Source of the DNA: Chitinivibrionales bacterium
GTDB taxonomy: Bacteria > Fibrobacterota > Chitinivibrionia > Chitinivibrionales > FEN-1185
DNA length: 64,000 bases
NCBI GenBank assembly: GCA_035516255.1
Contig: DATJAL010000027.1
Coordinates: 65,312 to 129,311 of the forward strand
Direction of reading: 5' to 3'
Each line of letters starts with the position of its first letter. Position 1 is the first letter of the stretch. This document shows, one piece after another, positions 3,148 to 63,830 of this stretch. The translations under genes and the position numbers were made by a program. The notes beneath the pieces are model-generated. The model saw nothing but the letters and a program-made list of their open reading frames with translations. It was not told the DNA's origin and did not search any database.

Positions 3148-3597
3148 TGGGCGCCTGCCGGTCACGGCACCGGTTCTCAAATAATAATTAATTTCCTTAT
3201 TTGGTGGGGACACCACTTCGTGGTTTCCCCTGGCCCCCGGCTTCCGCCGCCGCAGAATGTCACATATAACAATAGCGCGGCGGCAGTGATCCGGGGGCAC
3301 ACCCTTTCCTGCAAAGGGGCGCGCTGGTTCGCTCGCATTAAAGCTCGCGAGGCGTCGCCCCTTCGCAACGCATCCGCTGCGGAACATCCCCCTCCGCCTC
3401 CGGCGGTATCCACCTTGATAAGGGGGAAAAATAACTGCGGAAAGTTCGCCCTTGCCCGCGCGCCAGGCAGGACTGGAGGCCGCGCCAGTGCGCGGTGCTG
3501 CCCGGCCCTCGCCGTCAGGTATATAGGGGCCGTGGCAGCCGGAGCCGAAGGCGAGACCGGAAGGACGGCCGCCGCCGCGAAAGCGGCGGGGCGCCCA
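3148..3597. repeat. Full-length (~450 bp) mosaic hairpin-rich intergenic element with 8-bp terminal inverted repeat
   Basis: Starts TGGGCGCC (3148-3155) and ends GGCGCCCA (3590-3597), its exact reverse complement. The left half is homologous to 32683-32980. The right part (3465-3597) is a reverse-orientation copy of the core element seen at 5138, 16095 and 22591. Track ORFs 3142..3618 and 3177..3413 are translations of this repeat. Confidence 0.7.
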
Positions 3598-5137: not shown

Positions 5138-5311
5138 TTGGGCGTTCCTCCTTGCGGTCCACCCCTTCGGGTGCTTCTCCCTCGTCAGGGATTTCCAAGG
5201 GTCACAAGGGTCGTCGTCCTTCGGCTCGGGCTGCCACGGCCCGATGGCGGCGGACCGCCGGGGTCCGGGCAGCACCGCGCTCCCGCGCGGCCTCCAGTCT
5301 TGCCTAACGCG
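5138..5311 (+). repeat. Core intergenic repeat element (forward copy) carrying the 82-nt conserved block
   Basis: GGGCGTTCC at 5140-5148, 14 nt after the ahcY stop. Ends CCTCCAGTCTTGCCTAACGCG. Block 5158-5239 is identical (reverse complement) to 22641-22722 and 81/82 identical to 63721-63802. Confidence 0.8.
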
Positions 5312-6428: not shown

Positions 6429-7151
6429 ATGAAACGCGCCCTGGTTTTTCTGCTCTCCGCATTGATCATTGCTCCCTGCCTCTGCTTCGCCGACAAAGGC
6501 CAGATTCCCATCGCGGTCAACGACCTGACGGGCGAAGGGGTCGAGGCGTCGGAGGCGCGCATCATCTCCGACCGGTTCAGGTCGGAGCTGATCAATGCCC
6601 AGATTTTCCGCGTCATGGAGCGCGGCGAGATGGAAACCATCCTCAAGGAACAGGGGTTCCAGCAGAGCGGCATGTGCAACGACAAATCCTGCATGGTCGA
6701 GATGGGACAGATCCTGGGCGTGAAGCAAATCTTCGCGGGCACCATCGGAAAAATCGGCGGGATGTACACGCTTTCCACGCGGATGATTGACGTCGCGACG
6801 GGCGAGGTCCGGTTCTCGGTCACCCTCGACTGCAAATGCGCCATCAGCGACGTGCTCACCAAGTCGGTCCCGTCCATCGCCCAGCAGATCGTTGAAAAGA
6901 CGAAAGCGGCCATGCAGGCCCCGGCCGCGGCCCAGCCCGCGCAGGCGGCTCCGGCCCCTGCCGCGGCGCCGCAGCCGCAGCAAGCGGCCCAGAAACCGGA
7001 AAAGAAAAAATCGCTGTTTACACAATGGTATTTCTGGGTGCCCGCCGCGGTAGTAGTGTGCGGCGGCGCAGCGGCCGCGTATGTCGTTTTTGAAAGAAAA
7101 AACTCTGAAGTTCCCGAACAGCAAACCGGAGGAGTGATGGTACAATGGTAA
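6429..7151 (+). CDS. CsgG/LpoB-like periplasmic lipoprotein with Pro/Ala-rich linker and C-terminal TM helix
   Basis: The track ORF starts at TTG 6402. The ATG at 6429 has AAGGAG 7 nt upstream and gives MKRALVFLLSALIIAPCLCFA (lipobox-like). Core ISDRFRSELINAQIFRVMERGEMETILKEQGFQQSGMC...GGMYTLSTRMIDVATGEV is a paralog of the 41285..42436 product. Its stop overlaps the next start (caATGGTAA). Confidence 0.7.
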   Translation: MKRALVFLLSALIIAPCLCFADKGQIPIAVNDLTGEGVEASEARIISDRFRSELINAQIFRVMERGEMETILKEQGFQQSGMCNDKSCMVEMGQILGVKQIFAGTIGKIGGMYTLSTRMIDVATGEVRFSVTLDCKCAISDVLTKSVPSIAQQIVEKTKAAMQAPAAAQPAQAAPAPAAAPQPQQAAQKPEKKKSLFTQWYFWVPAAVVVCGGAAAAYVVFERKNSEVPEQQTGGVMVQW

Positions 7152-10100
7152 CCAAAGTAAAGAGCCGTTTCAGCATCGTCGTTTCCGCCGCCCTGGCGTG
7201 CTTCCTCCTCCTGCTGTTCTGCGGCAGGGACTCACTGTTTAACAAACCGGAATCGAAGCCGTACGGCGAGGTGTACCCCGTGCTGCTGTTCAAGAAAGGC
7301 GCGTCGACCATTGCGGTTCCCCCGCAGGTAAAAAGCATCAGGATGCAGGTCATGGGTGCCGAGATAGACACCAGCATCACGGTCCCGGATTCGGCGCACA
7401 AGGCCCAAATCACGCGCGTTCCCGTCGGCGTGGTGGTGGTAACCGTCGAGGGGCTCGACAGCGCCGGCCAGGTCTTTGATTCGGGAAGCGTTTCGGTGAC
7501 GATCGAGGCCAACGTGGTAGCCCAGCCGCAGATTGAATTACTTTCCACCCACCCCATCGTTCTCACCTTCATCTCGCCCAAGAACAACGACACCCTGGCC
7601 AACACCTCGGCGACCCTGAGCGGCACGATCGACGCGGACTACGGCCTGATCACGTTTAAAATGGGCACTTCCGAAATTACCGTGACCGGCGACCAATGGT
7701 CGCGCAACGTGGACCTTGTAAGCGGCACGAACACGTTCGCCTTTGTCGCGGTTGACAACAAGGGAAACACCCTCAGGGACACGCTCACGCTTGTCAATTC
7801 CGCCAGCGCGCATGACGTTACCGGGCCGGTCATCGCGCTCCTGCAGCCGGCCGACAGCAGCAAGGTGCCCGTGACGCCGGTCACCATACTGGGGACGGCG
7901 ACCGATCCCTCGGGCGTGCTTGCAGTCCAGGTGAACAGGCAGACGGCTACGCTTTCGGGCTCGTCGTTCTCGATCAACCAAGACCTTGTCCCGGGAAAGA
8001 ACACCATCATCATCACGGCGATCGACAACAGCCCCTCGCAGAACAAATCGTCCGACACGTTTACCGTGACCCTCGACACCACGGTTAAGGACACCGTGGG
8101 TCCTGTCTTCACCGTTGCCACGCCGAGAAACGGCGACACCGTGGCGACCGCAACGGTCATGATATCGGGGACCACGGCGGACATCAGCGGTGTCGCCTCG
8201 CTGCTGGTGAACGGCGTTGCGGCGACGATCGTGAACAACACCTGGTCGGTCTCGGTTCCCGTGGCCGCCGGGCCGAACAAGCTCCTCATCACCGCGACCG
8301 ACGCATCGCCGCAGCACAACGTGTCCCGCGATTCCATCGCCATTGTCTACAACGCCGCGGCGCAGGACAAGACCCTGCCCTCGGTGGCCATCACCTCGCC
8401 GTCGATCAACACCGTGGTGAGCAATCCGCTCAACATCACCGTTACCGGGACGGCGTCGGATCCGGCTGGAATTGCATCTGTCAAGGTTAACGGTTTTTCT
8501 GCCGCCTACACGAGCGGCACCTGGAGCGCGGTGATCTCACTGTCGCATCCCGGCAGTAACGCGGTGTGGGCGGTCGCCACCGACGGCGCGGGCAACAAGG
8601 ATTCCACGAGCATCAACCTCATATACGATTCCACTGCGGCCGACGTGATCCCGCCCGCGATTACCCTTGTGTCGCATACGACCGGACAGACCGTATCGGT
8701 CTCGCCCGTGCTTATCCAGGTGACCGCCACCGACGCCAACGGCATCAACTGGGTCACCATCAACGGCGACACGGCCGTCCTCAATGCGGGCAAATACGAG
8801 AAATCAATCACGCTTGCAACCGGTGTGAACCAGATCAAGGTGCTGGCTCAGGACAAGAGCACGAACCGCAACATAGACACGCTCAAATTTACGCTTACCT
8901 ACGATCCCACCGCAGCCGACACGGTTCCGCCCAAAATAACGCTTGTCTCGCACACCAACAACCAGGTGGTCTCGTCGAGAAACGCTCTCATCCAGGTTAC
9001 TGCGACCGATGCCAACGGCATTGCGTGGGTCACCATCATGGGTGACACGGCGGTCCTCACCGCGGGCAACTACCAGCGGAACGAGGTTCTTGTCAACGGC
9101 ACGAACACCATAAAAGTGGTGGCACAGGACGCGAGCTCGAACCATAACAAAGACACGCTCGTTTTCACGCTCGTATGCGACACGACGGCCGCGGACAACA
9201 CGCCGCCGACCATAACCTTTGTCTCGCCCCAGCCGGGCCAGAAGCTTTCCGCGCAACCCGTGCTGGTCCAGGTGACGGTCTCGGACCAGAGCGGCGTGGC
9301 GCTGGTGACCATCGGGGGAGACACGGTCTCCTCGACAAACGCGAATTACCAGCATCCGGTGCATTTGACCCAGGGATCGAACACCATCACCGTAACCGCC
9401 CAGGACGCGAGCCCCAACCACAACAAGGCCCTGCAAAACCTGACCGTCACGTACGATTCCACACTTACGGATTCGACGCCGCCCAAAATCTCGCTGGTTT
9501 CCCTCGCCGATTCCCAGGTCATGTCGGTGAAGACGGTCACGGTCCGGCTTACGGCGACCGATGCGAACGGAATTTCCCTGGTCACGCTGAACGGCGACAC
9601 CCTGCAGCTAAGCAGCAATATGTACTCTGAGACCAGAACGCTGGCGCCCGGAGCCAACGCATTCAAGGCGTATGCAATCGACGCAAGCTCGAACCATAAC
9701 CGGGCCGTGCTGAATTTCACCCTGTTTTACGACTCAACGGCCGCGGACACCACGCCGCCGACCATCGCCCTTGCCTCGCCCGCGAGCGCGGTCAACGTGA
9801 GCACCGCAACCGTAAGCGCCACCATCACGGACGCAAGCGGCATTTCCCTGGTGACGATCAACGGCGTTACCGTTTCTCCGTCGGGCAGCAATTATTCATG
9901 GTCGATGCCCTGCACCGCCGGCACCAACCATATCCTCATCGTTGCAACCGACGCGAGCACCCGAAAAAACCAGGCAACGTTGCGGACGACCTTCACCTAC
10001 GACCCGCCGCCCGACGCCGCGGTGCTCGCAACGCCCACGATCTTCTCCTACAATAGCGTGCACCTGACCTGGTCGGTGAGCGCCGACAACGACTTCGCGT

Positions 10101-11977
10101 CGTACAAGGTCTATCATTCGCAGCAGCCGAACGTCTCCACAACAAGCACGCTCGACACCACCATCACCGATGTCTCGACGTCATACTGCACCGTAATCAA
10201 CCTGCAGCAGAACACCAAGTATTATTTCAAGGTTTTCACCGTTGACAAATTCCCCTCGACAACGCCAAGCAACGAGGTGAACGCCACCACCACGCAGGTC
10301 CCGCTGCCGATCGTCTACATCAGTTCGCCCAACCTGCAGCGGGATTCCAATCTTGTCAACAGCTCGCCCGTCGCCGTGTCGGGAACCGTGAGCACCCCGG
10401 CGACCGTCACAAGCATGTCGGCGCTGGTGAACGGCAACGCCGCCACCGTGAGCGGCACCTTCCCCAACTGGAACATTTCGGCGGCACTCAACGCCAACGT
10501 GTGGAACACCCTTCAAGTCAGCGCGACCGACAATTATTCAGGCACGGGGTCAAAAACATTCTGGCTCTTTTTGAAGCAGCCCCTCAACCAGCCGAACTAC
10601 GCGTCGGTGGACAGTTTCAACAACACCAACGTTTATTTGTCCTGGGCGCCCATCCAATACTGCACCAACTATACGATTTTCCGTTCGTCAATAAACAACA
10701 CCGGCCCCTGGACCATCGCCGCGCAAGGCCTTACCGGTCTCCACTATGCGGACACCGGGCTGACGCCGGGCACCCAGTACTGGTATGCGATGAAGGGATC
10801 CTATTCGTACCCGTCGGGCTTCGCCTCATCGGATTCCACGCCGCTGTCGTTGACCAATTATTCCCAAACCAAATTCTGGTTCCAGAAGCTTTACTTTCCG
10901 AACACGCCGGCATCCGAAGGCGCGAGCGTGGCCGCCGCCCAAAACGGTTATTTCGTATTCGGAACCATTCAGCCGCAGGCGGGCGGCCTGCACTTGCCTT
11001 TCTTCTGCAAACTCGACAGCATCGGAGACACCGTTTTCACCTATGCGTATTCGAGCGGGCTCTCCTGGTCCGCCGGCAAGATGGACGCCGCTGCCGACAA
11101 AAGCTTTGCGTATTGCGTGGGGTCCCTGTACAACGGCACGGTCTGGACGGCGCTCGTCATGAAGATGAGCGCCTCGGGAGGCGCGCTTTTCTCAAAAACA
11201 TATAACTGGGCGCAAGGCGTGCATGCGAACTGCGTCAGGGCATTGCCGGACGGAGGGTGCCTGGTGGGCGGTAAATCATCCAATGCAGGCGTTGACAATG
11301 TCTGCATTTTCAGGCTCGACGCATCCGGGACCCTTTTGTGGAGCAGATCATTCAACACGTACCAGACCGAAGCCTACGATCTTGTGGTGCTGGGCGACGG
11401 CACCGGGGCTGTGTATGCGGGACGTATCTGGAACTCCACCAGAATGGCCGCCGACATCGACCTGGGGAAAGTTTCCATGGCCGGCGACTCCCTGTGGGAA
11501 AAACGCATGCCGGCCACAAGCAGTTTCGACTGGTCCGCAGGTAGTATTATTCAGGCGTCGGATGGAAGCCTGGTGATCGCGGGAATGGCCCCGACGAGTT
11601 CCGGCGTGCCGCAAAACTACTTTTTGAAAACCGACGCGACTGGCGCGCAGGTGTGGTCAAATGTTTTTCCCGGGTATTCCACCGGCGCCGCCTCCCTTGC
11701 ATCGGTCAAGCAGACGTCGGACGGCGGTTACATAGCGGCCGGCTATGCCATGAACGTCGGCGGCCAACAGGCCTCTTTGATGAAATTGGCTTCCGATGGA
11801 AGTCAAACATGGCAGGTGAATTACGGACAATCCGGCGGCGATATTGGGCAATCGGTGGACATTGCCCCGGACGGCGGCTTTGTCGTATGCGGCACCAATG
11901 AAAGCAACGGCAACGGCGACAAACTATGGCTGATAAAGACCGATAAGAACGGCGGCTGCGTGATGCCCGGGCCGTAG
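7145..11977 (+). CDS. Giant secreted/surface protein: about 9-10 tandem Ig-like domains, 2 FN3 domains, C-terminal beta-propeller-like repeats
   Basis: 1610 aa with an N-terminal hydrophobic signal (FSIVVSAALACFLLLLFCG). Roughly 92-aa units repeat (..TPPxITLVSxxxxQ..VTATDANGI..VTINGDT...GxNxIxVxAxDxSxNxN..). FN3-like segments YKVYHSQQP...YYFKVFTVD and YTIFRSS...QYWYAMKG. The tail repeats D-G-G-[YF]-[IV]...G...D.WL.K.D..G. Confidence 0.85.
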   Translation: MVTKVKSRFSIVVSAALACFLLLLFCGRDSLFNKPESKPYGEVYPVLLFKKGASTIAVPPQVKSIRMQVMGAEIDTSITVPDSAHKAQITRVPVGVVVVTVEGLDSAGQVFDSGSVSVTIEANVVAQPQIELLSTHPIVLTFISPKNNDTLANTSATLSGTIDADYGLITFKMGTSEITVTGDQWSRNVDLVSGTNTFAFVAVDNKGNTLRDTLTLVNSASAHDVTGPVIALLQPADSSKVPVTPVTILGTATDPSGVLAVQVNRQTATLSGSSFSINQDLVPGKNTIIITAIDNSPSQNKSSDTFTVTLDTTVKDTVGPVFTVATPRNGDTVATATVMISGTTADISGVASLLVNGVAATIVNNTWSVSVPVAAGPNKLLITATDASPQHNVSRDSIAIVYNAAAQDKTLPSVAITSPSINTVVSNPLNITVTGTASDPAGIASVKVNGFSAAYTSGTWSAVISLSHPGSNAVWAVATDGAGNKDSTSINLIYDSTAADVIPPAITLVSHTTGQTVSVSPVLIQVTATDANGINWVTINGDTAVLNAGKYEKSITLATGVNQIKVLAQDKSTNRNIDTLKFTLTYDPTAADTVPPKITLVSHTNNQVVSSRNALIQVTATDANGIAWVTIMGDTAVLTAGNYQRNEVLVNGTNTIKVVAQDASSNHNKDTLVFTLVCDTTAADNTPPTITFVSPQPGQKLSAQPVLVQVTVSDQSGVALVTIGGDTVSSTNANYQHPVHLTQGSNTITVTAQDASPNHNKALQNLTVTYDSTLTDSTPPKISLVSLADSQVMSVKTVTVRLTATDANGISLVTLNGDTLQLSSNMYSETRTLAPGANAFKAYAIDASSNHNRAVLNFTLFYDSTAADTTPPTIALASPASAVNVSTATVSATITDASGISLVTINGVTVSPSGSNYSWSMPCTAGTNHILIVATDASTRKNQATLRTTFTYDPPPDAAVLATPTIFSYNSVHLTWSVSADNDFASYKVYHSQQPNVSTTSTLDTTITDVSTSYCTVINLQQNTKYYFKVFTVDKFPSTTPSNEVNATTTQVPLPIVYISSPNLQRDSNLVNSSPVAVSGTVSTPATVTSMSALVNGNAATVSGTFPNWNISAALNANVWNTLQVSATDNYSGTGSKTFWLFLKQPLNQPNYASVDSFNNTNVYLSWAPIQYCTNYTIFRSSINNTGPWTIAAQGLTGLHYADTGLTPGTQYWYAMKGSYSYPSGFASSDSTPLSLTNYSQTKFWFQKLYFPNTPASEGASVAAAQNGYFVFGTIQPQAGGLHLPFFCKLDSIGDTVFTYAYSSGLSWSAGKMDAAADKSFAYCVGSLYNGTVWTALVMKMSASGGALFSKTYNWAQGVHANCVRALPDGGCLVGGKSSNAGVDNVCIFRLDASGTLLWSRSFNTYQTEAYDLVVLGDGTGAVYAGRIWNSTRMAADIDLGKVSMAGDSLWEKRMPATSSFDWSAGSIIQASDGSLVIAGMAPTSSGVPQNYFLKTDATGAQVWSNVFPGYSTGAASLASVKQTSDGGYIAAGYAMNVGGQQASLMKLASDGSQTWQVNYGQSGGDIGQSVDIAPDGGFVVCGTNESNGNGDKLWLIKTDKNGGCVMPGP
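7553..10005 (+). repeat. Coding tandem array of Ig-like domain units (about 276-285 bp period)
   Basis: The five best-conserved units (about 8625-10005) begin D[ST]TAAD..PP.I.L.S. Four more divergent units lie upstream. Protein-domain repeats, not CRISPR. Confidence 0.7.
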
Positions 11978-12004: not shown

Positions 12005-12037
12005 AAAAATCCCCCGCTTGTCAAGGGGGATTTTTTT
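12005..12037 (+). terminator. Rho-independent terminator after the giant-protein gene
   Basis: AAAAATCCCCC (12005-12015), loop gcttgtcaa, GGGGGATTTTT (12025-12035), followed by a T-run. Confidence 0.7.
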
Positions 12038-12235: not shown

Positions 12236-14047
12236 ATGAAACCAGCCGCATTACTGCTTCCGGTTTTGCTTTTTTCCTTCCTGTTCCTGCAGTGTTCCGG
12301 AAACGGGGAAAACGCCAAGAAACCGCCCCAGCCTTCCCAGCTTTCGGTGACCCAGCCAACGGCCAACGGCGCAACGCTCGTGTGGAAGCCGGGCGCAGAC
12401 AGCCTTAATATCACCAGCTACCGGCTGGTGTTCTCGCACCAGAGCGGCGTTGACAGCCTCGACACCGTTGTTGTGGCCACGGCCGGGACGGGCCGCAGCT
12501 TCACCCTGTGCAACCTGCTGCCGGGCTCCACGCTTTATTTCAAGGTGTACGGCGTGGATGAAAACGGGCTGATGACCGGCTCCAACGAGGTACCGGTCAC
12601 CATCCCCGACGCATCGCCGCACATCACCGTGTCTGCGCTCTCGTCCGGAAGTCAGATCGACAACGACAACGACGGCTATGCGAGCTCATACACGCTGTCC
12701 TATACGCTGCAGAACACGCGCCAGGACACGGGCACCGTCATCTGCCGGGTGTATTACCTTCCGTCGGCGGCGACGGCGTGGACGGCCTTTCACGCCGACA
12801 CCGTCTCCTTTACAGCCGCGAAAGCCGAGACCACGCTTTCGCACATCACCGGCGCCGACCTGCGCGACAGCGTCGCGGTCCGCGCATCGGTCTTCAACCA
12901 GGCCGGCACGCTCCTTTCTTCCCGGATCCTCACCGGCATCCGCGAGGAGTCCAACGCCGACGACGGCATCGTGCGGCAGCAGTTCACCATCAAGATGTCC
13001 CTCAAGGACAGCGTCGATTTCAACAAAAACGGGTACCTGAGCAATTATTCCATTCTGTACGACGTCGATGTGTCGAGCGGCACCAGCCAGGTGGTCGTGC
13101 GGCTTTACAGCCGGCAAAACGGCACCACGGCATGGAAACAGTTCCTCCGCGACACCATTACCGTGACCGGCGTCAGCACGTCGGACCGCGTCTCCGAAAC
13201 CATAGGGGCGGACCAGCACGAGACGGTGGACATCCTCGCACGCGTCACGGACCTTTCCGGCCGCCCGGTGGCGTCCGATTCGATCCTCGGCGTCAGGGAG
13301 GAGAGCCGGGACGACGACCGCGTCTACCGCCTCGCCTATGCGGTCATCGACAGCGTTTACGACGGCGACCAGGACCACTACTACAGCCAGTACCGCCTGA
13401 AATTCGGGGCCGACATGAGCTGGGGCAGCGACTCGGCGTATGCGGTGGTCATCCATCACGGGCCCGCGCTTGCGACGGACTCGATCGTGTACCAGAGCCC
13501 GCTCTTCCCCATCAGCAATTCGCTGCCCGCGGAGACGAACCCGCATTACGTGATGCTGACCGGGCTCGAAGCCGGTGCCACCGCCACGATCACCCTCAAG
13601 GTGTTCCGCGCGGGCGGCATCCTGATCGACACGGCGGTGTTCTCCGTGCCGGATGAAACGCCGGCGGACGACGTCCCGGTGATCTTCACCGCAACCATGG
13701 CGCTTACCGCACATGTCGATGGCAACAACAACGGCTGTTACAGCTCGTGGACACTCAACTCATGCGTGTCGGTGAACACGGGCGGCACGCAGACCGTCAC
13801 CGCCACCTTTTATTACCGGCTCAGCACCGGCACCCAGTGGTTCCCGCTTAACAACACGGCAAACGGCACCAGCACCATTTCCTACACGGTTTCTCCCGGC
13901 GCCGCCGTCTGCCATCCGTTTACCGGCACGTACAATACCGGTCCGTGCCGCACCTTTGACGTTCAAATGACGGTCACCAAGGGCGGTTCCGTGGTGGCGC
14001 AAACCTATTATTACGGACTGAAGGACGAATACTTTATTTATGACTGA
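12236..14047 (+). CDS. Lipoprotein with N-terminal FN3 domain and four ~117-aa repeats, each opening with a DxDxDG-like loop
   Basis: The ATG at 12236 has AAGGAG 7 nt upstream and gives MKPAALLLPVLLFSFLFLQCSG (lipobox LQC); the track start at 12167 is less likely. Repeats open with DNDNDGYASSY, DFNKNGYLSNY, DGDQDHYYSQY and DGNNNGCYSSW at about 352-nt spacing. Confidence 0.75.
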   Translation: MKPAALLLPVLLFSFLFLQCSGNGENAKKPPQPSQLSVTQPTANGATLVWKPGADSLNITSYRLVFSHQSGVDSLDTVVVATAGTGRSFTLCNLLPGSTLYFKVYGVDENGLMTGSNEVPVTIPDASPHITVSALSSGSQIDNDNDGYASSYTLSYTLQNTRQDTGTVICRVYYLPSAATAWTAFHADTVSFTAAKAETTLSHITGADLRDSVAVRASVFNQAGTLLSSRILTGIREESNADDGIVRQQFTIKMSLKDSVDFNKNGYLSNYSILYDVDVSSGTSQVVVRLYSRQNGTTAWKQFLRDTITVTGVSTSDRVSETIGADQHETVDILARVTDLSGRPVASDSILGVREESRDDDRVYRLAYAVIDSVYDGDQDHYYSQYRLKFGADMSWGSDSAYAVVIHHGPALATDSIVYQSPLFPISNSLPAETNPHYVMLTGLEAGATATITLKVFRAGGILIDTAVFSVPDETPADDVPVIFTATMALTAHVDGNNNGCYSSWTLNSCVSVNTGGTQTVTATFYYRLSTGTQWFPLNNTANGTSTISYTVSPGAAVCHPFTGTYNTGPCRTFDVQMTVTKGGSVVAQTYYYGLKDEYFIYD

Positions 14048-14070
14048 TCACCCGAATCGGATGATGATGC

Positions 14071-15483
14071 ATGCCTGAGTCGGCCTATAACATTTCCCGG
14101 AAAAACGGCGGAGCATTGACGCTCACGTCCGAATGTCACTGCGTCCGTGTTCCGCACAAGCCGGACCAATGGCTGCTGTATTTCCCGCTCAAGTCGCTGT
14201 TCTTTAAAGTAAACAAGACCGCCGCGGAAGTCATCGGGCGGCTCAAGGCGGGCAGAAACGGTTTTTCCCCGAAAGAAAGATCGTTTATCTCCCTGCTGAA
14301 AGGCGCCGGCCTGGTTAACGGGGCAGGCGACAAAACGCCCTACACCGGCCTTCAGGTCTCCAAACCCGCGCCGTACCGCACCCAACTGCTGCTCACCCAT
14401 GACTGTTCCCTTGCCTGCCTGTACTGCTACAGCGGCGCCATACGCAGCCGCAGCCGCATGTCCTTCGCGCATGCCCGCGCCGCGGTGGATCTCGTGATCC
14501 GCAATGCATTGGCGGCTCATCAGCGCAGCATTGACATCGGGTTCCACGGCGGCGGCGAGCCGACCGCGAACTGGAAGGTGCTTACAAAAACGGTCGAGTA
14601 TGCCCGCAGGCGGTGCGCGGAAGTAAAGCTGGGATGCAGCTTCTCGCTGTGCACCAACATGCTGCTCCCTGTTGTCAAGGCCGACTGGATCGCGCGCAAC
14701 ATCGGCAGCGTCACCATATCCATCGACGGCACGCCCGCGATCCAGAACCGGCAGCGGCCCACCAGGAGCGGCGGGCCTTCCTACACGGTCGTGGCCAGGG
14801 CCATCGACCGGCTCACGCGGCTGAAAAAGCCGTATGGATTCCGCGTGACCGTCACGGGCATCTCGGAAAACAAGATTGAAGCGATATACCGCCACCTCAC
14901 CACACGGTTCAGGCCCAACAGCATCTGCTTCGAGCCGCTCTTCGTGTGCGGAAAGCGGCCCACCGAATCCTGCCGCCGCCCGGGCGCCGGCGCGTTTATC
15001 AACGGCATCAAGGCGGTTTCGCGGCTTGCGCAAAAGCAAAGGATCGGCATCCAGTATTCGGGCGGCCGGCTCGCCTACATGGGCAATGCCTTTTGCGGCG
15101 CGGCGGGCGACAATTTTTTCATCACCCCGCAGGGCGACGTCACGTCGTGCCTCGAGGTCTCGTCGCGTCGCGACAAGCGCTCGCGCCTGTTCTTCTACGG
15201 TTCATTCAATGCCAAAAAGAAATCCTTTGATTTCAACTTGGCCAAGTACCGGCGGCTCAAGTCGCTGCGCATGGAGCGGTTCGAGCCGTGCTCGGCGTGC
15301 TTCGCGCGCTGGCACTGCGCCGGCGACTGCCTGGCCAAGAAACCCGATTTTGACAATATCACAAAACTCGCCAACGATTACCGTTGCGGCATCAACCGCG
15401 AGCTCACGCTCCACCAGCTGCTGCGGCAGCTTGATTTTAAGGAACGGAGCGTGCAAAGGAGGCACTGTGGAGAAAAGAAGTAG
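14071..15483 (+). CDS. Radical SAM/SPASM-domain peptide/protein-modifying enzyme
   Basis: 470 aa. CSLACLYC (CX3CX2C) followed by GGGEPTANW. Full SPASM pattern: CGAAGDNFFITPQGDVTSC (CX13GX4C), CSACFARWHCAGDC (CX2CX5CX3C), then a later Cys (YRCG). The N-terminal ~100 aa (LFFKVNKTAAEVIGRLKAG...) resembles a PqqD/RRE-type leader-binding segment. Confidence 0.9.
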   Translation: MPESAYNISRKNGGALTLTSECHCVRVPHKPDQWLLYFPLKSLFFKVNKTAAEVIGRLKAGRNGFSPKERSFISLLKGAGLVNGAGDKTPYTGLQVSKPAPYRTQLLLTHDCSLACLYCYSGAIRSRSRMSFAHARAAVDLVIRNALAAHQRSIDIGFHGGGEPTANWKVLTKTVEYARRRCAEVKLGCSFSLCTNMLLPVVKADWIARNIGSVTISIDGTPAIQNRQRPTRSGGPSYTVVARAIDRLTRLKKPYGFRVTVTGISENKIEAIYRHLTTRFRPNSICFEPLFVCGKRPTESCRRPGAGAFINGIKAVSRLAQKQRIGIQYSGGRLAYMGNAFCGAAGDNFFITPQGDVTSCLEVSSRRDKRSRLFFYGSFNAKKKSFDFNLAKYRRLKSLRMERFEPCSACFARWHCAGDCLAKKPDFDNITKLANDYRCGINRELTLHQLLRQLDFKERSVQRRHCGEKK

Positions 15484-16063
15484 AAAACAACCCGAAGGTC
15501 CGAAGATCCTCGCCGTGAGCGATCTTTTCCATCTTGAAACCCGCCAGCGTCTCGGACTCGTCAACGCCGCGGAAGTCACCAGGCGGCGCGCGTTCCTCAA
15601 GAAAATGCTCGGCGGCGCGGCCCTGCTTGCCTTTCCGTCAATCGGCACTCCCATGATCACCGGCCCGTCCGGCGTGCGCACTATCGCCTCGACAAAGGAC
15701 GTTCCGGGCCAGACCCTCTGCTGCACCTGCGACACCGACCTCCAATGCAAGTGCCAGACCCACGTCCCCTGCACCTGCCAGTCCGATGCGCCCGCCTGCA
15801 CGTGCGACGCGGACATGGGGTGCAAGTGCCAGGCATACGCCGGCACGTGCGCGAGCTACGGCTCGTTCCAGCCGTGCAGCTGCAACGCCTACAGCGCGGC
15901 GGTCTGCTCGGCCCACAGCACCTGCACGTGCCAGAACCAGTGCGCGTGCCAGAACTACAACCCGTGCGCCTGCGATCCGCAATGCACCTGCCAGAGCAAT
16001 TGCGGCTGCGACGGCCAATGCATGTGCGAGATCCAGTGCGCGTGCCAGTTGTACGGGGTTTGA
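15467..16063 (+). CDS. Tat-signal, extremely Cys-rich CxC[Q/D/N/E]-repeat protein (putative substrate/precursor)
   Basis: This is the in-frame 3' part of track ORF 14876..16063, whose first ~590 nt merely overlap the rSAM gene out of frame. GTG at 15467 lies 4 nt after AGGAGG (15457-15462). Twin-arginine motif TRRRAFLKK (RRR at 15581-15589), then h-region MLGGAALLAF. The last 114 aa (15719-16060) hold 29 Cys in 13 CxC units. Alternative starts: GTG 15515, or ATG 15605, which would delete the RR motif. Confidence 0.7.
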   Translation: MEKRSRKQPEGPKILAVSDLFHLETRQRLGLVNAAEVTRRRAFLKKMLGGAALLAFPSIGTPMITGPSGVRTIASTKDVPGQTLCCTCDTDLQCKCQTHVPCTCQSDAPACTCDADMGCKCQAYAGTCASYGSFQPCSCNAYSAAVCSAHSTCTCQNQCACQNYNPCACDPQCTCQSNCGCDGQCMCEIQCACQLYGV

Positions 16064-16094
16064 ACTACTAACTAAAATTAAATTATAAAAATCT

Positions 16095-16246
16095 GGGCGT
16101 TCCCCCACCTCGCACACCCGTGCGAGGTGGGGTCGGTTCTCCTTCCGGTCTCGCCTTCGGCTCGGGCTGCCACGGCCCCTATATGCCTGACGGCGAGGGC
16201 CGGGCAGCACCGCACTCCAGCGCGGCCTCCAGTCGCCCCTAACGCG
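16095..16246 (+). repeat. Core intergenic repeat element (forward copy)
   Basis: GGGCGTTCC (16095-16103), perfect 12-bp hairpin CCCACCTCGCAC/GTGCGAGGTGGG (16104-16131), then TCGGTTCTCCTTCCGGTCTCGCCTTCGGCTCGGGCTGCCACGG...GGCCTCCAGTCGCCCCTAACGCG. Lies 32 nt after the Cys-rich gene stop. Confidence 0.8.
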
Positions 16247-16354
16247 CGGGACATAATTTCTTTTCAGTCAAGACATCCTATCGCGCCACTTGGCAATGCG
16301 TTTCCCTATAAATCTTAAGAATATTTCTATTGAATCCGGATATATTTTTCCCTC

Positions 16355-17185
16355 ATGAATTTAAAAAAGGCATATTACATTTCCTGCTCGCGGCGCACCG
16401 ATGTTCCACGGTTCTTTCTCAATGAATTTTTTGACGCGTGGGAAAAGGGCGAAATCTCCTACGACGCCGGGTACGGACGGTCCTACACGGTTTCGCTCAA
16501 ACCGCGGGACGTGCTGGGATACGTTTTCTGGTCAAAAGATTTTTCCGCGTTTATCAAGCACGAACTGTTTGGTGAACTGTGGAAAATAAACAACGCCGTG
16601 TTTCATTACACCATTAATAATTGTCCTGAGCTTGAGCCCAATGTCGCGCCGCTTCACGTACGCCTGCAGACGCTTGATCGCCTTTGCGAACTTGCGGGAC
16701 CGGAAAGGGTGTCGTGGCGGTTTGATCCGATTTGCAAATACCGGAGAAAAGACGGAAGTGCCGTCACGAATTTTCCGTCCTTCTATGACATTCTGTCCCA
16801 TGTCAAGAAATCGGGAGTGAAACGCTGCTACTTTTCGTTCATGAGCCATTATTCAAAATTGAAGAAAAGGGATGTGCTGTTCGGTGATTTTGATGAAAAG
16901 GAAAGAACCGCGCTGGGAAAAGAATTGCTGGATGCGGCTTCACAGGCGGGAATGGTACTGTATAATTGCTGCAATCCGGAAGTCCTGCGGCTTGTTCCGG
17001 GAATCAGACAGGCGCATTGCATTGACGATGAAATTCTAAAGGAGACGGACAGGTTCGGCGTTCACCCGGATTTAGGCCTCAAGCCCACGCGGGAAGGATG
17101 CGGGTGTTTTGAAAGCAGGGACGTGGGGTCATATTTGCAGAAATGTCCGCACAGGTGCTTATACTGTTATGCGAATCCGGGGTAA
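16355..17185 (+). CDS. DUF1848-family protein with C-terminal radical-SAM-like Cys cluster
   Basis: 276 aa. N-terminal YYISCSRRTDVPRFF and extreme C-terminal CPHRCLYCYANPG (CX3CX2C), as described for Pfam DUF1848. GC is visibly lower than in neighbouring genes. Confidence 0.75.
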   Translation: MNLKKAYYISCSRRTDVPRFFLNEFFDAWEKGEISYDAGYGRSYTVSLKPRDVLGYVFWSKDFSAFIKHELFGELWKINNAVFHYTINNCPELEPNVAPLHVRLQTLDRLCELAGPERVSWRFDPICKYRRKDGSAVTNFPSFYDILSHVKKSGVKRCYFSFMSHYSKLKKRDVLFGDFDEKERTALGKELLDAASQAGMVLYNCCNPEVLRLVPGIRQAHCIDDEILKETDRFGVHPDLGLKPTREGCGCFESRDVGSYLQKCPHRCLYCYANPG

Positions 17186-17613: not shown

Positions 17614-20247
17614 ATGCAAAATCGTGTTCCGTCCGCATTTGCGTCCGTCATCAGTTCAACTCTTCTTCTTTTTCTTTTCACAGTCCAACCTGTAAATGCC
17701 ACGAAACTCGCCGAGGTTCGGGTCGTTGACAAGGATTATCTCGAGGTGTATTTCAAGGACGGCGACGTCTTTTTCGTTGACAACGGAAAGGGCCCCAGCG
17801 CGTTTCTCAACCTTGCCCACGACACGACCAACGAGATCCTCACCTACTACGGCACCGGACTCAACACCGCCACAGCGGTCACGACCGCCTCGTGGAAGCT
17901 CGCCTCAGCCGACGACGCGGCGTATGGGACCGCGGGACTCGCGCCCGTAAACTGCTTTCGCAAATCCAAGCTCAACGGCATGTACGAGGGGAGCTGGTCG
18001 GGCAGCGATTTCGTCTATTCGCACACCATGGAACACCATATTTACCTCAAGCTGCCGTCTTCCCTGGTGCAGGGCAAGACCTATACGCTGCAGATCGCCG
18101 CGGGCACCAACACCGATTCGACGTCCGCGACATTCACGTACGATATTTACAGCAGCCGCTCCGAGGCGGTGCATGTGAACCTGTCGGGGTATTCGGCGGC
18201 GCCGAACGTCAAGGCCGCCGACCTGTACGCCTGGCTCGGCGACGGCGGGGCCCGGGACTACTCCGGATTCGTCGGGAACAAAGTCTATATTGTCAACACC
18301 TCCACCGGAACGCCCCAGCAGACCGGCACGGTGTCGCTGTGGAAAACGAGCGCGGCGGAGGCGCAGGGCTACAACATGACCGGCTCGAACGTGTGGAAGG
18401 TTGATTTCACCGGCTTCACCACGCCGGGCACCTACCGTCTGGCGGTTGATGGCGTCGGGTGCAGCCAGGACTTCACCATCGCCGACACCATCTATCACGA
18501 CCCGTTCATGGTCGCGGTCCGCGGCTATTTTTACATGCGCATCGGCCAGGACAGCGCCGGCATACGGCCCATTCCGCGGCGGCCGCTTTACATTCCGGGA
18601 AAAGACCCGGCCAACACCGTGGTGTACATCACCACCATGCAGCCCACCGATCCCGCTTGGACCACCTTTACCGGCGGCGACGTGTGGGACAATCCCGACG
18701 CCTGGGCGCCGTATAAAAACGGCAAGACCAATGCGAACGCCTACGGCGGCCACGCCGACGCGGCCGACTGGGACCGGAACATGAACCACATCTCCAATAT
18801 TTACGACATGCTGTTCCCCTACATCCTCACGGGCGGGGCGCTTTCGGACGACAACCTGGGCATCGCCGAAAGCCGCAACGGCATCCCGGACATCATTGAC
18901 GAAGCGAGAAACGAGGTCGATTTCTGGCTGCGGCTGCGCGACGGACAGGCGTATTCGTACGGACTCACCAATCCGGACGGCAACAACGTGCTTTACCAGG
19001 CGGGAACCAACGCTATAGCAGCGTGGGCAGCGGCCGCGGGCAGCGCCATGCTCGCCGAGGCGTTCCGCATCGCGGGAAACACCGCGCTTTCAAACGCCTA
19101 CCGCGATTCCGCCGTCAACGCGTACAATTTCGCCGGCACGCTCGCCGACCAGATGCTCGACTTCAAGCAGAACGTGGGCGAAAGCACGGTGCGCGGCAGG
19201 GACCTCAAGATGACGGCCGCCGCCTACCTGTACAACCTTACCGGCACCACTGCCTACGAGGACGAGGTCAACGCCGAAAGCAAGGCCGCGTCCAGCGCCA
19301 CCGCGGCGATCATCGACCCGAGCAACTTCAACCAAATCTGGGCCACGGCAGGCTATCTCAAGACGAACAGGACCGTGCATTACCAGACGCTCTACAGCAA
19401 CATGGTGTCGTCGGTGGTGAGCGACGCGAAGAACAGCGAGACCAACTACAGCGGCTCGCGTCCGTCAAGACGCTGTACCGACAACAACACCGAGTATTTC
19501 CACACCGAAACGCACGTGCACCGCACGATCCTGGCCCATGCGGTCGCCGCGACCCAGGCCGACAAGGACCTGTTCCTCAACGCGCTCATTTGCGAGGCGG
19601 ATTGGAACCTGGGCCGCAACCCGGCAAACCTGATCCAGATGACCACCGCGTCCACGCCCCTGTCGAGCAAGCGCAGCGTGGACGCCATGTACATCTCGGG
19701 CGGCAATGACGGCACGCCGGGCCAGCACCCGGGCATGACGCCCTATTTCAACACCGACGACTGGGGCGGCAACATGATCATGGGAAATCCGAGCTGGATG
19801 TGCGCGTTCAGCTACCCGGCCAACAACACGTGGCCCAAGGGCGAGGTCTATTTCAACACGCGCTGGGTGTACGCCCATTCGGAGTTCACGCCGCAGCAGA
19901 CCATGCGGGGGAAGATCGCGCTGTACGGATACCTGTACGGGATAAGGAATGGGAACAACCCGGTGAGGCAGAACCCTGGCGTGATTGACAATTTAAGAAA
20001 CTCGGCGCAGCTGTTCCGCATCGAACGCCTGGCCAACGGGAACTTCGCGTTGACCTTCACCGGCGCGACGGAGGCCGGCAAGCGGCTGCAGCTTTACAAT
20101 TGCACAGGCAGGTTGATAAAGTCAATCATGCTCGCAGGCAATCGCGCGAGTGTCCGGCTGGAGACGGCCACCATGGATAAAGGGATTTATTTCCTGAAGG
20201 TCGAGGCGGAGGGAAGGAAGGTCTGTAAAATGATAGCTGTATTTTAA
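17614..20247 (+). CDS. GH9-like glycoside hydrolase with N-terminal Ig-like (CelD_N-type) domain and T9SS C-terminal sorting domain
   Basis: 877 aa with AAGGGGGG upstream and a signal peptide. Ig-like module ends GTYRLAVDGVGCSQDFTIADTIY. GGHADAADWDRN resembles the GH9 GGWxDAGD motif. The C-terminus GIYFLKVEAEGRKVCKMIAVF is a typical T9SS CTD. Family call is by eye only. Confidence 0.7.
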   Translation: MQNRVPSAFASVISSTLLLFLFTVQPVNATKLAEVRVVDKDYLEVYFKDGDVFFVDNGKGPSAFLNLAHDTTNEILTYYGTGLNTATAVTTASWKLASADDAAYGTAGLAPVNCFRKSKLNGMYEGSWSGSDFVYSHTMEHHIYLKLPSSLVQGKTYTLQIAAGTNTDSTSATFTYDIYSSRSEAVHVNLSGYSAAPNVKAADLYAWLGDGGARDYSGFVGNKVYIVNTSTGTPQQTGTVSLWKTSAAEAQGYNMTGSNVWKVDFTGFTTPGTYRLAVDGVGCSQDFTIADTIYHDPFMVAVRGYFYMRIGQDSAGIRPIPRRPLYIPGKDPANTVVYITTMQPTDPAWTTFTGGDVWDNPDAWAPYKNGKTNANAYGGHADAADWDRNMNHISNIYDMLFPYILTGGALSDDNLGIAESRNGIPDIIDEARNEVDFWLRLRDGQAYSYGLTNPDGNNVLYQAGTNAIAAWAAAAGSAMLAEAFRIAGNTALSNAYRDSAVNAYNFAGTLADQMLDFKQNVGESTVRGRDLKMTAAAYLYNLTGTTAYEDEVNAESKAASSATAAIIDPSNFNQIWATAGYLKTNRTVHYQTLYSNMVSSVVSDAKNSETNYSGSRPSRRCTDNNTEYFHTETHVHRTILAHAVAATQADKDLFLNALICEADWNLGRNPANLIQMTTASTPLSSKRSVDAMYISGGNDGTPGQHPGMTPYFNTDDWGGNMIMGNPSWMCAFSYPANNTWPKGEVYFNTRWVYAHSEFTPQQTMRGKIALYGYLYGIRNGNNPVRQNPGVIDNLRNSAQLFRIERLANGNFALTFTGATEAGKRLQLYNCTGRLIKSIMLAGNRASVRLETATMDKGIYFLKVEAEGRKVCKMIAVF

Positions 20248-22590: not shown

Positions 22591-22766
22591 CATAGCAGGC
22601 AGGACTGGGGGCCGCGCCGGAGCGCGATGCTGCCCGGACACCGTGGCAGCCCGAGCCGAAGGACGACGACCCTTGTGACCCTTGGAAATCCCTGACGAGG
22701 GAGAAGCACCCGAAGGGGTGGACCGGAAGGACGGCCGACCCCGTGCCTTGAGCGCGGGGAACGCCC
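22591..22766 (-). repeat. Core intergenic repeat element (reverse copy) with the 82-nt block
   Basis: ..AGGCAGGACTGGGGGCCGCGCCGGAGCGCGATGCTGCCCGG..CCGTGGCAGCCCGAGCCGAAGG..GACCGGAAGGACGGCCGA, hairpin CCCCGTGC/GCGCGGGG (22739-22759), GAACGCCC. It starts 6 nt beyond the stop of the 22773 minus-strand ORF. Track ORFs 22503..22709 and 22577..22927 are translations of it. Confidence 0.8.
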
Positions 22767-26068: not shown

Positions 26069-26202
26069 GGGCGTTCCCCCGCTGCGCGGGGTCGGCCGTC
26101 CTTCCGGTCTCGTGCTTCACACTCGGGCTGCCACCGCCCTTATATGCCTTGCGTCTCGATACGCCGCTTAAAAGCGGCCACTCGGCAACTGCACCCTACA
26201 GG
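26069..26202 (+). repeat. Core intergenic repeat element (forward, diverged 3' half)
   Basis: GGGCGTTCC, hairpin CCCCGC-tgc-GCGGGG (26077-26091), TCGGCCGTCCTTCCGGTCTCG..CTCGGGCTGCCACCG. Sits in the divergent region between the cyclase and DUF89 genes. Confidence 0.65.
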
Positions 26203-36044: not shown

Positions 36045-36536
36045 GTGGGGAAAGTTTCCCCCTCGCTCCGGCCAGGTCGCGCTCCACCATTTTTCAACAG
36101 ATTCGTACCCGTTAAGCACGCCCGGTCCTACGCTACCCCCTCCTGGGTGCGGCCGGGTACCGGCGTCCGCAAGCCCGAACCTCCCGCTGGGCGCACCCTT
36201 GAAGCGACCGATTACCAAGGCGAACTTTCATTTTAGTTATTGAAACCGCCACGAAGTGGCTGCATAGTTATAGCCCGGGGCACCGCCCCGGGTTGAACCG
36301 GAGAATATAAGCGTCCCCCTCTCCTGCGGGAGAGAGGCGGCCCGCAGGGCCGGGGTGAGGTTATCCTATTAATCAATACTTGGTCGGCGCCATTGTGCTA
36401 GTTGACAGGCTTGAATTTTGCCGCCGCGTCGGCGGCTTCGCGCGGCAGCCCGAGGGCGGGCCCGAGACCGGAAGGACGGCCGACCCCATAATAAAGGCTG
36501 GATCGTGTGACCCAGCCTTTATTATGGGGGAACGCC
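36045..36536. repeat. Long mosaic repeat region ending in a reverse core copy
   Basis: Modules GGGGAAAGTTTCCCC, GAAACCGCCACGAAGTGGC and the GGGGTGAGG repeat (36313-36362). The core (36420-36536) contains GGCAGCCCGAGG..GACCGGAAGGACGGCCGA, a perfect 18-bp hairpin (36484-36529) and GAACGCC. It lies 23 nt beyond the stop of the 36559 minus-strand gene. Confidence 0.65.
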
Positions 36537-63609: not shown

Positions 63610-63830
63610 GGCAGCGCCCACGCGCTCGTGACAGTTTGATCGTCGCATGCATCCGGGGCCTTCAGCCCCCGGGCCCGTTTTGTTGGGGCGGTTCGCGAAC
63701 CGCCCCAACAAAACCTCGGGCCGCGGCAGCCCGAGCCGAAGGACGACGACCCTTGTGACCCTTGGAAATCCCTGACGAGGGAGAAGCACCCGAAGGGGTG
63801 GACCGTAAGAAGGGCCGCCGCGGAACGCCC
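63610..63830 (-). repeat. Core intergenic repeat element (reverse copy) with the 82-nt block and a divergent far end
   Basis: 63721-63802 is 81/82 identical to 22641-22722. Ends GGAACGCCC (63822-63830). The far half has a different hairpin, TTTTGTTGGGGCGGTTCGCGAACCGCCCCAACAAAA. Confidence 0.75.

Follow-up and report, generated by a model that had tools for sequence, protein, structure and literature searches.

The question raised by positions 12236-16063 of a 64,000-nucleotide stretch of DNA from a Chitinivibrionales bacterium (Fibrobacterota; contig DATJAL010000027.1; the whole stretch is called the window below) is what a radical SAM/SPASM enzyme modifies when its gene runs into that of a small protein crowded with Cys pairs. 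Three + strand genes lie here, encoding a secreted repeat protein, the radical SAM/SPASM enzyme, and the Cys-rich protein, with intergenic gaps of +23 nt between the first two and −17 nt between the last two. A sequence-only reading of this DNA had described the same three tightly packed genes, and all of its coordinates and counts for them hold; it had proposed a protein cross-linking system or one resembling those for peptides synthesized on ribosomes and then modified post-translationally (RiPPs). The 17-nt overlap suggests that enzyme and Cys-rich protein are translationally coupled. Our analysis supports, with the caveats discussed below, a radical SAM/SPASM maturation system whose substrate family and export arrangement are both new. 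Radical SAM/SPASM maturases are a main source of new peptide chemistry, and this system is small (two genes) and directly testable.

The recurrence of the enzyme with a CxC-rich partner in other genomes carries this conclusion. A pattern scan seeded with the enzyme, over one genome per GTDB species, gave 492 stretches encoding relatives of it. The best 80 of these were fetched (31-47% identity; the sources span many phyla of bacteria and include several archaea), and 77 were usable, with at least 400 nt of downstream sequence. A same-strand open reading frame (ORF) with at least 3 CxC motifs starts at or near the stop codon of the enzyme gene in 54 of the 77, against a background of 3% of all ORFs of at least 100 amino acids in the fetched loci that reach this number. 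Where the enzyme is at least 39% identical to that of the window, every fetched locus (16 of 16) has a downstream precursor with an RRxFL motif (RK in one) plus CxC repeats. The reverse search gave a matching picture: the Cys-rich family, used as the profile for an exhaustive search of 1.84 billion representatives, returned only 27 proteins at E ≤ 1e-3, and the five of these that were looked up all directly follow a radical SAM gene, with overlaps or gaps of no more than 38 nt. In several of those five loci, nothing is conserved besides this pair.

The linkage on which the sequence-only reading had staked its proposal is thus present, since every Cys-rich homolog examined lies directly downstream of an orthologous radical SAM gene. 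Forward and reverse linkage together define the core of the system as a two-gene pair, most likely an enzyme and its substrate, judging from sequence, that recur in many genomes. Relatives of the enzyme are spread over hundreds of species-level genomes, with a CxC-rich partner in most of the 80 that were examined. The Cys-rich protein itself is unmatched in NCBIfam, Pfam, and PADLOC and lacks a significant match among PDB sequences, in keeping with the earlier remark that the precursor family was unfamiliar. A metagenome scan with an alignment of its leader, described below, gave 49 pattern matches, of which 0 were confirmed by tblastn.

The enzyme meets the Pfam model PF04055 (50.8 bits against a gathering cut-off of 29.5), and the three Cys of its CX3CX2C motif (C112, C116, and C119) are invariant in 38 homologs. 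The full SPASM signature that had been read from the sequence also stands: seven further Cys (C342, C360, C407, C410, C416, C420, and C439) are invariant in the same homologs and align to the SPASM domains of CteB and of the anaerobic sulfatase maturase anSME. The Pfam SPASM model PF13186 itself remains below its cut-off (16.5 versus 21.5). The best similarities in NCBIfam (June 2026 release) span 105-115 bits and lead to formers of peptide and protein thioethers (the nif11-type maturase, PapB, the SCIFF maturase, and QhpD, at 107-115 bits against cut-offs of 340-519), and the enzyme is below every family-specific cut-off in NCBIfam and Pfam. These scores place it in the peptide- and protein-maturase part of the SPASM group, in no named family, and thereby dispose of the possibility, raised with the original proposal, that it belongs to a family with a different known substrate. 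Five more distant relatives are likewise below all named-family NCBIfam cut-offs, and for the window enzyme PADLOC returned generic viperin-type similarity only.

Structure comparison points the same way. A profile search of PDB sequences with the enzyme placed CteB (5WGG) first (E 1.5e-46) and anSME next, and its AlphaFold (AF2) model, with a mean predicted local distance difference test score (pLDDT) of 90, was matched by Foldseek to CteB at E 5e-22 and a template modeling (TM) score of 0.69-0.76. Other Foldseek neighbors include anSME, TigE, and ChlB. The N-terminal domain (residues 17-80) is predicted with high confidence as three strands followed by two helices. In the model, this domain resembles the fold type of the RiPP recognition element (RRE), and the alignments to CteB begin within the N-terminal region.

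The Cys-rich protein has the layout of a precursor. Its 198 residues include 29 Cys, all encoded by TGC and all within the last 114 residues, and 13 CxC units in which the next residue is always Q, D, N, or E; these counts, and the RRxFLK motif ahead of them, agree with those first reported. Among 21 precursors that are 25-56% identical, conservation is highest at the N-terminus, with P12, D19, and R40 invariant and I14, L20, L23, R28, R41, and L44 almost so; the stretch ahead of the two arginines thus equals the RR motif in conservation. The precursors begin with a leader of about 35 residues (consensus kPxIlxAxDLvHLnxxQRLxLLG), followed by RRxFLK, a hydrophobic stretch, and, in most relatives, a lipobox Cys that is absent from the window protein and its closest relatives. 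The motif R40-R41-A-F-L-K is present in the window protein at a position conserved in its homologs. The Pfam TAT_signal model (PF10518) matches the N-termini of 3 of 10 relatives (best E 1.4e-6) and not that of the window protein; targeting to the twin-arginine translocation (Tat) pathway is therefore well supported for the clade and only reasonably so for the window protein.

Past the signal, the relatives have CxC[E/Q]xD repeats, optionally 1-4 Big_5 immunoglobulin-like (Ig-like) domains, and then a C-terminal Cys block. This block ends CxCEVQCGCQLYRI in relatives and CMCEIQCACQLYGV in the window protein, with CxCE(I/V)QCxCQLY(G/R)(V/I) as the conserved motif, and it is marked as the constant part of the core by some relatives (P0132 and P0134) that retain it alone. 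AlphaFold gives the core a pLDDT below 50 (49 for the model) and no confident autonomous fold, with a predicted helix at residues 34-54 over the signal region. The lack of an autonomous fold is consistent with a peptide-like substrate that needs cross-links. The pair has several marks of a RiPP system, namely a precursor of leader plus core, an RRE-like maturase domain, and co-localized genes, with binding of the leader by the RRE-like domain predicted. The product is above the usual RiPP size, with a 114-residue core here and whole proteins in relatives.

Two further substrate types accompany related enzymes. The second type consists of short peptides (100-140 amino acids) without a signal peptide, with a leader of the form xKPDDR...EPKIYxVVDGxxFxRPGLETFF and (CSCxxV)n cores ending CRCAPVH. 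In Desulfobacter curvatus and a Syntrophomonadaceae metagenome-assembled genome, the peptide genes belong to conserved clusters that place a stand-alone PqqD protein upstream and TPR, B12-radical SAM, and U32-family genes downstream, an arrangement typical of RiPP clusters. Two loci (L037, 5475-12043, and L025, 5498-11623) show the series PqqD-like protein, radical SAM/SPASM enzyme, CRCAPVH-ending peptide, TPR/Sel1 protein, B12-binding radical SAM protein, and Peptidase_U32-family protein; the enzyme and peptide of these clusters matched no named NCBIfam family. The RiPP-like, cross-linking logic first suggested from the sequence has accordingly gained ground, through the RRE-like domain, CteB as nearest structure, the conserved leader, and these distant members in PqqD clusters.

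The third type consists of large proteins (430-1,010 amino acids) in which a leader and an RRGFLG motif are joined to a WD40 propeller and whose C-terminal CxC core has the form YTLPCGxPIPPGAVCTCNCVPG...CTCNKICTCIPV; their genes often overlap the stop codon of the enzyme gene by 4-8 nt. WD40-type ORFs directly follow the enzyme gene in L058, L067, L069, L073, L078, L080, L082, L050, L055, and L059. By eye only, a tail resembling the intramolecular chaperone of phage tail spikes was seen in L067, L069, and L073, and a helical repeat in L059 and L080. A short motif, P-x-[IVL]-h-x3-[DEN], occurs near the start of all three precursor types. A conserved Tyr or His stands near the C-terminus (QLYRI, PLYRI, and PVH).

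From the observed gene linkage, conservation, family placement, and domain architecture, we infer how leader binding, chemistry, Tat route, cleavage, and function may fit together, a proposal to which we give slightly better than an even chance. The substrate would be made in the cytoplasm as a leader (residues 1-38), a Tat-type signal (RRAFLK plus the hydrophobic h-region), and an unstructured 114-residue CxC core, and the leader would be bound by the N-terminal RRE-like domain of the enzyme. The radical SAM site, aided by two auxiliary SPASM clusters, would then abstract hydrogen atoms in the core, most probably joining Cys sulfurs to carbons of nearby residues as sactionine- or ranthionine-type thioethers, with the C-terminal CxCEVQCxCQLY block as a likely primary site. 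Tat accepts folded or cross-linked cargo; the rigidified domain would be barred from Sec and exported folded via Tat. One signal-peptidase cut would take off leader and signal together, made by LspA at the lipobox in most relatives and by signal peptidase I in the window protein, unless the signal there stays uncut as an anchor. The product would be a periplasmic or surface-located, heavily stapled Cys-rich module, for which the repeat protein of the operon is a possible partner here, and which relatives would carry as fusions to Ig-like domains or WD40 propellers. Export and processing of this kind would explain the absence of genes for a dedicated protease or exporter from the locus, and would account for Tat-type loci being without the PqqD, peptidase-like, and transporter genes that accompany the short peptides.

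Thioethers are put forward as the most likely chemistry because the neighbors of the enzyme are CteB, PapB, and QhpD. By this analogy, we assign the links to thioethers tentatively, somewhat short of an even chance. A wider reading is possible but doubtful: the operon may belong to a large unnamed class, in bacteria and archaea, in which a RiPP-type leader occupies the N-terminal region of a twin-arginine signal, stapling is obligatory before Tat export, a general signal peptidase makes the cut, and the result is a poly-thioether module. In such a class, stapling may act as a maturation checkpoint, by analogy with the chaperone proofreading of cofactor-containing Tat enzymes. If this were true, the stapled module would be a new type of poly-thioether unit that serves outside the cytoplasm in metal binding, redox chemistry, or structure and that occurs by itself, next to repeat proteins, or as a fusion with Ig-like domains or WD40 propellers.

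Several results weigh against the proposed mechanism. The window protein is unmatched by the Pfam TAT_signal model at E values up to 10, it has neither a lipobox nor an obvious AxA cleavage site, and RK replaces RR in two close relatives (L004 and P0125). Searches with Escherichia coli queries found no tatA or tatC in the 64-kb window, which says nothing of the whole genome. The residue after each CxC, which the sequence-only reading had taken as acidic or amide throughout and suited to thioether formation, is so in the window protein, whereas V, N, and G are common in the wider family; because this position is not conserved, the acceptor cannot be read from the sequence. The leader motif shared by the three precursor types is found in only 25 of the 54 precursors, compared with 5.8% of background, and hhalign of the Tat-clade leaders with the short-peptide leaders is weak (P 0.023 over 13 columns, P-x-I...D), so that leader homology between these two clades is suggestive, not proof.

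The chemistry leaves room for a first alternative, in which the same pair carries out a reaction other than thioether formation: oxidation of Cys or Ser to formylglycine-like aldehydes, epimerization, C-C or C-O cross-links with the C-terminal Tyr, or the making of a protein-derived redox cofactor. The enzyme scores far short of the cut-off in every model for thioether formers, and SPASM enzymes catalyze many reactions, with anSME, TigE, and ChlB among its structural neighbors. The conserved Tyr or His near the C-terminus would suit such chemistry, as would the B12-radical SAM and U32-family proteins added in the short-peptide clade. Against these points, a dense run of Cys pairs is the only feature common to all three precursor types, and the closest relatives in sequence and structure (CteB, PapB, and QhpD) all make Cys thioethers; we consider a different reaction unlikely.

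A second alternative concerns export. RRAFLK might not be a working Tat signal in the window protein, whose hydrophobic stretch would instead serve for Sec export or hold the N-terminus permanently in the membrane, with the leader left in the cytoplasm. The failure against the Pfam model, the short h-region, the missing lipobox and clear cleavage site, and the existence of RK variants all favor this, and two relatives weakly match an uncleaved Rieske-type Tat anchor. Such an anchor would still be inserted by Tat, however, and R-R-x-F-L-K is a perfect consensus, with two arginines that keep their position in the clade and vary little or not at all. The WD40-propeller relatives carry RRGFLG, and such propellers fold in the cytoplasm. 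We therefore regard a signal that does not work through Tat as quite unlikely, and leader-guided cross-linking followed by Tat export as the better account. The two RK precursors (L004, 7423-7938, and P0125, which is L084, 4179-4700) are the closest outside the Chitinivibrionales and read T-R-K-x-F-L-K yet keep the lipobox; they may offer a natural test case for the strictness of the twin-arginine requirement.

A third alternative is that the Cys-rich domain serves chiefly to bind metal or Fe-S clusters, in the manner of a metallothionein or ferredoxin; it would be loaded in the cytoplasm and exported folded via Tat, with the radical SAM enzyme assisting cofactor assembly or only loosely coupled to it. 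Metallothioneins have CxC spacing and a Cys-rich composition akin to the 25% Cys found here, and proteins loaded with cofactors are common Tat cargo. Among PDB sequences, the Cys-rich protein has a single, non-significant similarity (E ~0.5), to the stretch of periplasmic formate dehydrogenases that comprises the Tat signal and the N-terminal Fe-S region, and signal-peptide-bearing, metal-binding RiPPs are known (bufferins, PMC11626156). This alternative leaves unexplained the leader ahead of RR, the RRE-like domain, and the near-universal adjacency and overlap with an enzyme of the peptide-maturase type, and we find it distinctly improbable. Metal binding and stapling are compatible, as a stapled product could still bind metal.

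The Cys-rich frame is a real gene. Its G+C content at third codon positions (GC3) is 0.83, compared with about 0.75-0.87 for credible genes in the window and 0.52 and 0.57 for the other two frames. The rival antisense ORF (15638-16210, − strand, 190 amino acids) has a GC3 of 0.49, which marks it as an artifact of repeated TGC/GCA codons. A word-indexed search gave four homologs of the Cys-rich protein (99, 80, 57, and 56% identity) in which 28 of the 29 Cys are invariant, and comparison with the 57%-identical homolog (L001) shows 42 synonymous and 85 non-synonymous codon differences. The core repeats at 8 and 6 residues, and periodicities at the DNA level are weak, at 24 and 18 nt. The idea that the frame is a compositional artifact of GC-rich DNA, with the enzyme's target encoded elsewhere, was prompted by overlapping ORFs on both strands, of which a naive longest-ORF caller takes the antisense one, and is reduced to a negligible chance and rejected on the GC3 values, the homologs with their invariant Cys and many synonymous differences, and the conserved gene position and Shine-Dalgarno site.

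Comparison with described systems shows what is familiar in this pair and what is not. CteB, the SCIFF maturase, and PapB come closest, CteB as the solved structure most similar to the enzyme and the other two among its leading NCBIfam similarities, and all have in common with the window enzyme an RRE-like N-terminal domain, CX3CX2C, a seven-Cys SPASM domain, and an adjacent gene for a Cys-rich substrate. The scores of about 110 bits are far from the cut-offs of 340-425, and we rejected assignment to the SCIFF maturases (TIGR03974, 109.8 versus 425) and to the PapB family (NF047865, 111.4 versus 340). The substrate differs as well, with 198 amino acids (relatives reach about 1,000) and 29 Cys in CxC hexads and octads where theirs is a peptide of about 45 amino acids, and with a Tat-type signal after the leader and no dedicated protease or transporter gene present.

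In the qhp system of quinohemoprotein amine dehydrogenase, the order qhpA-D-C puts a large secreted protein, a radical SAM enzyme, and a small Cys protein in a row, which the order of this operon resembles; the leader of QhpC is cut by a dedicated protease, and the subunit leaves through an ABC exporter and is not known to use Tat. QhpD, also a radical SAM/SPASM enzyme, cross-links Cys to side-chain carbons in QhpC, a small and finally periplasmic subunit (PMC7876137). Here too, a radical SAM/SPASM gene stands with that of a small Cys protein, but QhpD (TIGR03906) was rejected as the identity of the enzyme, at 107.1 bits against a cut-off of 453, and the core has no Trp for cysteine tryptophylquinone (CTQ) and 29 Cys versus 4. 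No heme-c subunit and no genes of the qhpE/F/G type were identified adjoining the operon.

A general secretion route for a modified precursor has precedents in the bufferins, which are signal-peptide-bearing RiPP precursors of MNIO enzymes with a Sec signal (PMC11626156), and in DybA, a "RiPP-lipoprotein" of an MNIO system that uses the lipoprotein pathway (PMC13056109). In these systems, and by inference here, a Cys-containing precursor is modified in the cytoplasm and leaves by a general secretion or lipoprotein route, with its leader removed by signal peptidase. Their enzymes are of the MNIO (DUF692) type and their signals of the Sec or lipoprotein type, whereas this system has a radical SAM/SPASM enzyme and a twin-arginine-type signal, with a separate leader upstream of the signal. 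anSME is similar in being a SPASM enzyme and structural neighbor that acts on Cys or Ser in a later-exported protein; it was rejected as an identity (TIGR03942, 65.6 bits versus a cut-off of 349), no sulfatase was identified adjoining the operon, and the conserved partner is the CxC protein.

If confirmed, the pair would add a class of substrates in which each unit of 6-8 residues has two Cys, substrates that are entire folded proteins (Ig-like domains and WD40 propellers), and radical SAM maturation coupled to Tat export with the leader inside the signal peptide, where a dedicated protease and exporter are unneeded. A full-text literature search (radical SAM with Tat, signal peptide, WD40, or Cys-rich), with subscription journals outside its coverage, gave no description of the system, neither of a radical SAM system with a twin-arginine precursor nor of these CxC precursors.

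The first gene of the operon stands outside the core pair. Its 603-residue product has a signal peptide, one fn3 domain, and four stretches matching NF038116 "choice-of-anchor H" (75 bits, cut-off 53). It had been described as a lipoprotein with four repeats headed by DxDxDG; the four stretches are there, but only the first head is a true DxDxDG (DNDNDG), the others being degenerate. The N-terminus, MKPAALLLPVLLFSFLFLQ-C20, has Q at −1 and a lipobox, FLQC, that departs from [LVI][ASTVI][GAS]C, so that lipoprotein status is probable, not certain. The protein appears in 3 clusters only among 5.8 billion proteins, each directly 5' of the radical SAM gene, and the order of upstream protein, enzyme, and Cys-rich protein is kept on all contigs that carry the distant Cys-rich homologs P0003 and P0004. 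It is a lineage-specific but exclusive accessory of the operon. Other lineages have other secreted neighbors: in L004 and L084 a lipoprotein with InlB-B repeats is encoded downstream, and in L012 and L086 the upstream neighbors are unknown proteins. The parallel once drawn with the TIGRFAM/NCBIfam "rSAM/lipoprotein system", which likewise sets a radical SAM/SPASM gene beside a probable lipoprotein, was rejected: its radical SAM model is not among the 25 best NCBIfam matches of the enzyme, the upstream protein matches NF038116 only, and that protein is confined to a narrow lineage.

Coordinates of the operon and of its boundaries are collected in Table 1. The terminator previously placed upstream is present as a hairpin plus T7, and it is possibly bidirectional because A5 and T7 stand on its two sides.

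Table 1. Positions of operon features in the window.
Feature	Position	Strand	Remarks
Hairpin TCCCCC...GGGGGA, then T7	12010..12037		Terminator-like upstream operon boundary; − strand version listed by scan
Secreted repeat protein	12236..14047	+	603 amino acids; lineage-specific accessory partner
Radical SAM/SPASM maturase	14071..15483	+	470 amino acids
RRE-like N-terminal domain of maturase	14119..14310	+	Residues 17-80; AF2 model
CX3CX2C radical SAM cluster motif	14404..14427	+	C112, C116, C119
SPASM region of maturase	15094..15387	+	Seven invariant Cys
AGGAGG ribosome-binding site	15457..15462	+	Inside 3' end of maturase gene, 4 nt before GTG at 15467
Cys-rich precursor protein	15467..16063	+	198 amino acids; GTG start; 17-nt overlap with maturase gene
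Conserved leader	15467..15580	+	Residues 1-38, ahead of twin-arginine motif
Tat-type motif R40-R41-A-F-L-K plus h-region	15584..15646	+	Residues 40-60
Cys-rich core	15719..16060	+	Residues 85-198; 29 Cys in 13 CxC[QDNE] units
GC-rich 12-bp hairpin	16103..16132	+	40 nt past stop codon, without T run; possible 3' end structure

The repeat element that had been noticed past the operon is a dispersed intergenic repeat of about 100 nt (~16140-16250), of which the window has at least 6 further copies (3455-3565 (−), 5218-5311, 22603-22662 (−), 26088-26149, 36441-36488 (−), and 63718-63742 (−)). The copies are 80-94% identical, and the element may be similar to a repetitive extragenic palindromic (REP) element or a miniature inverted-repeat transposable element (MITE). 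Large surface proteins are encoded on both sides of the operon: at 7145-11977 (+), a protein of 1,610 amino acids with 9 Glucodextran_B stretches, 4 Big_7 stretches, and fn3, and at 17614-20247 (+), one of 877 amino acids with a CelD_N Ig-like domain and a type IX secretion system (T9SS) C-terminal sorting domain. Directly past the repeat element, at 16355-17185 (+), lies the gene of a DUF1848 protein (E 2e-54), which appears unrelated to the operon and is not beside the enzyme/Cys-rich pair in related loci with examined gene lists; its C-terminus contains CPHRCLYCYA, a CX3CX2C-like motif.

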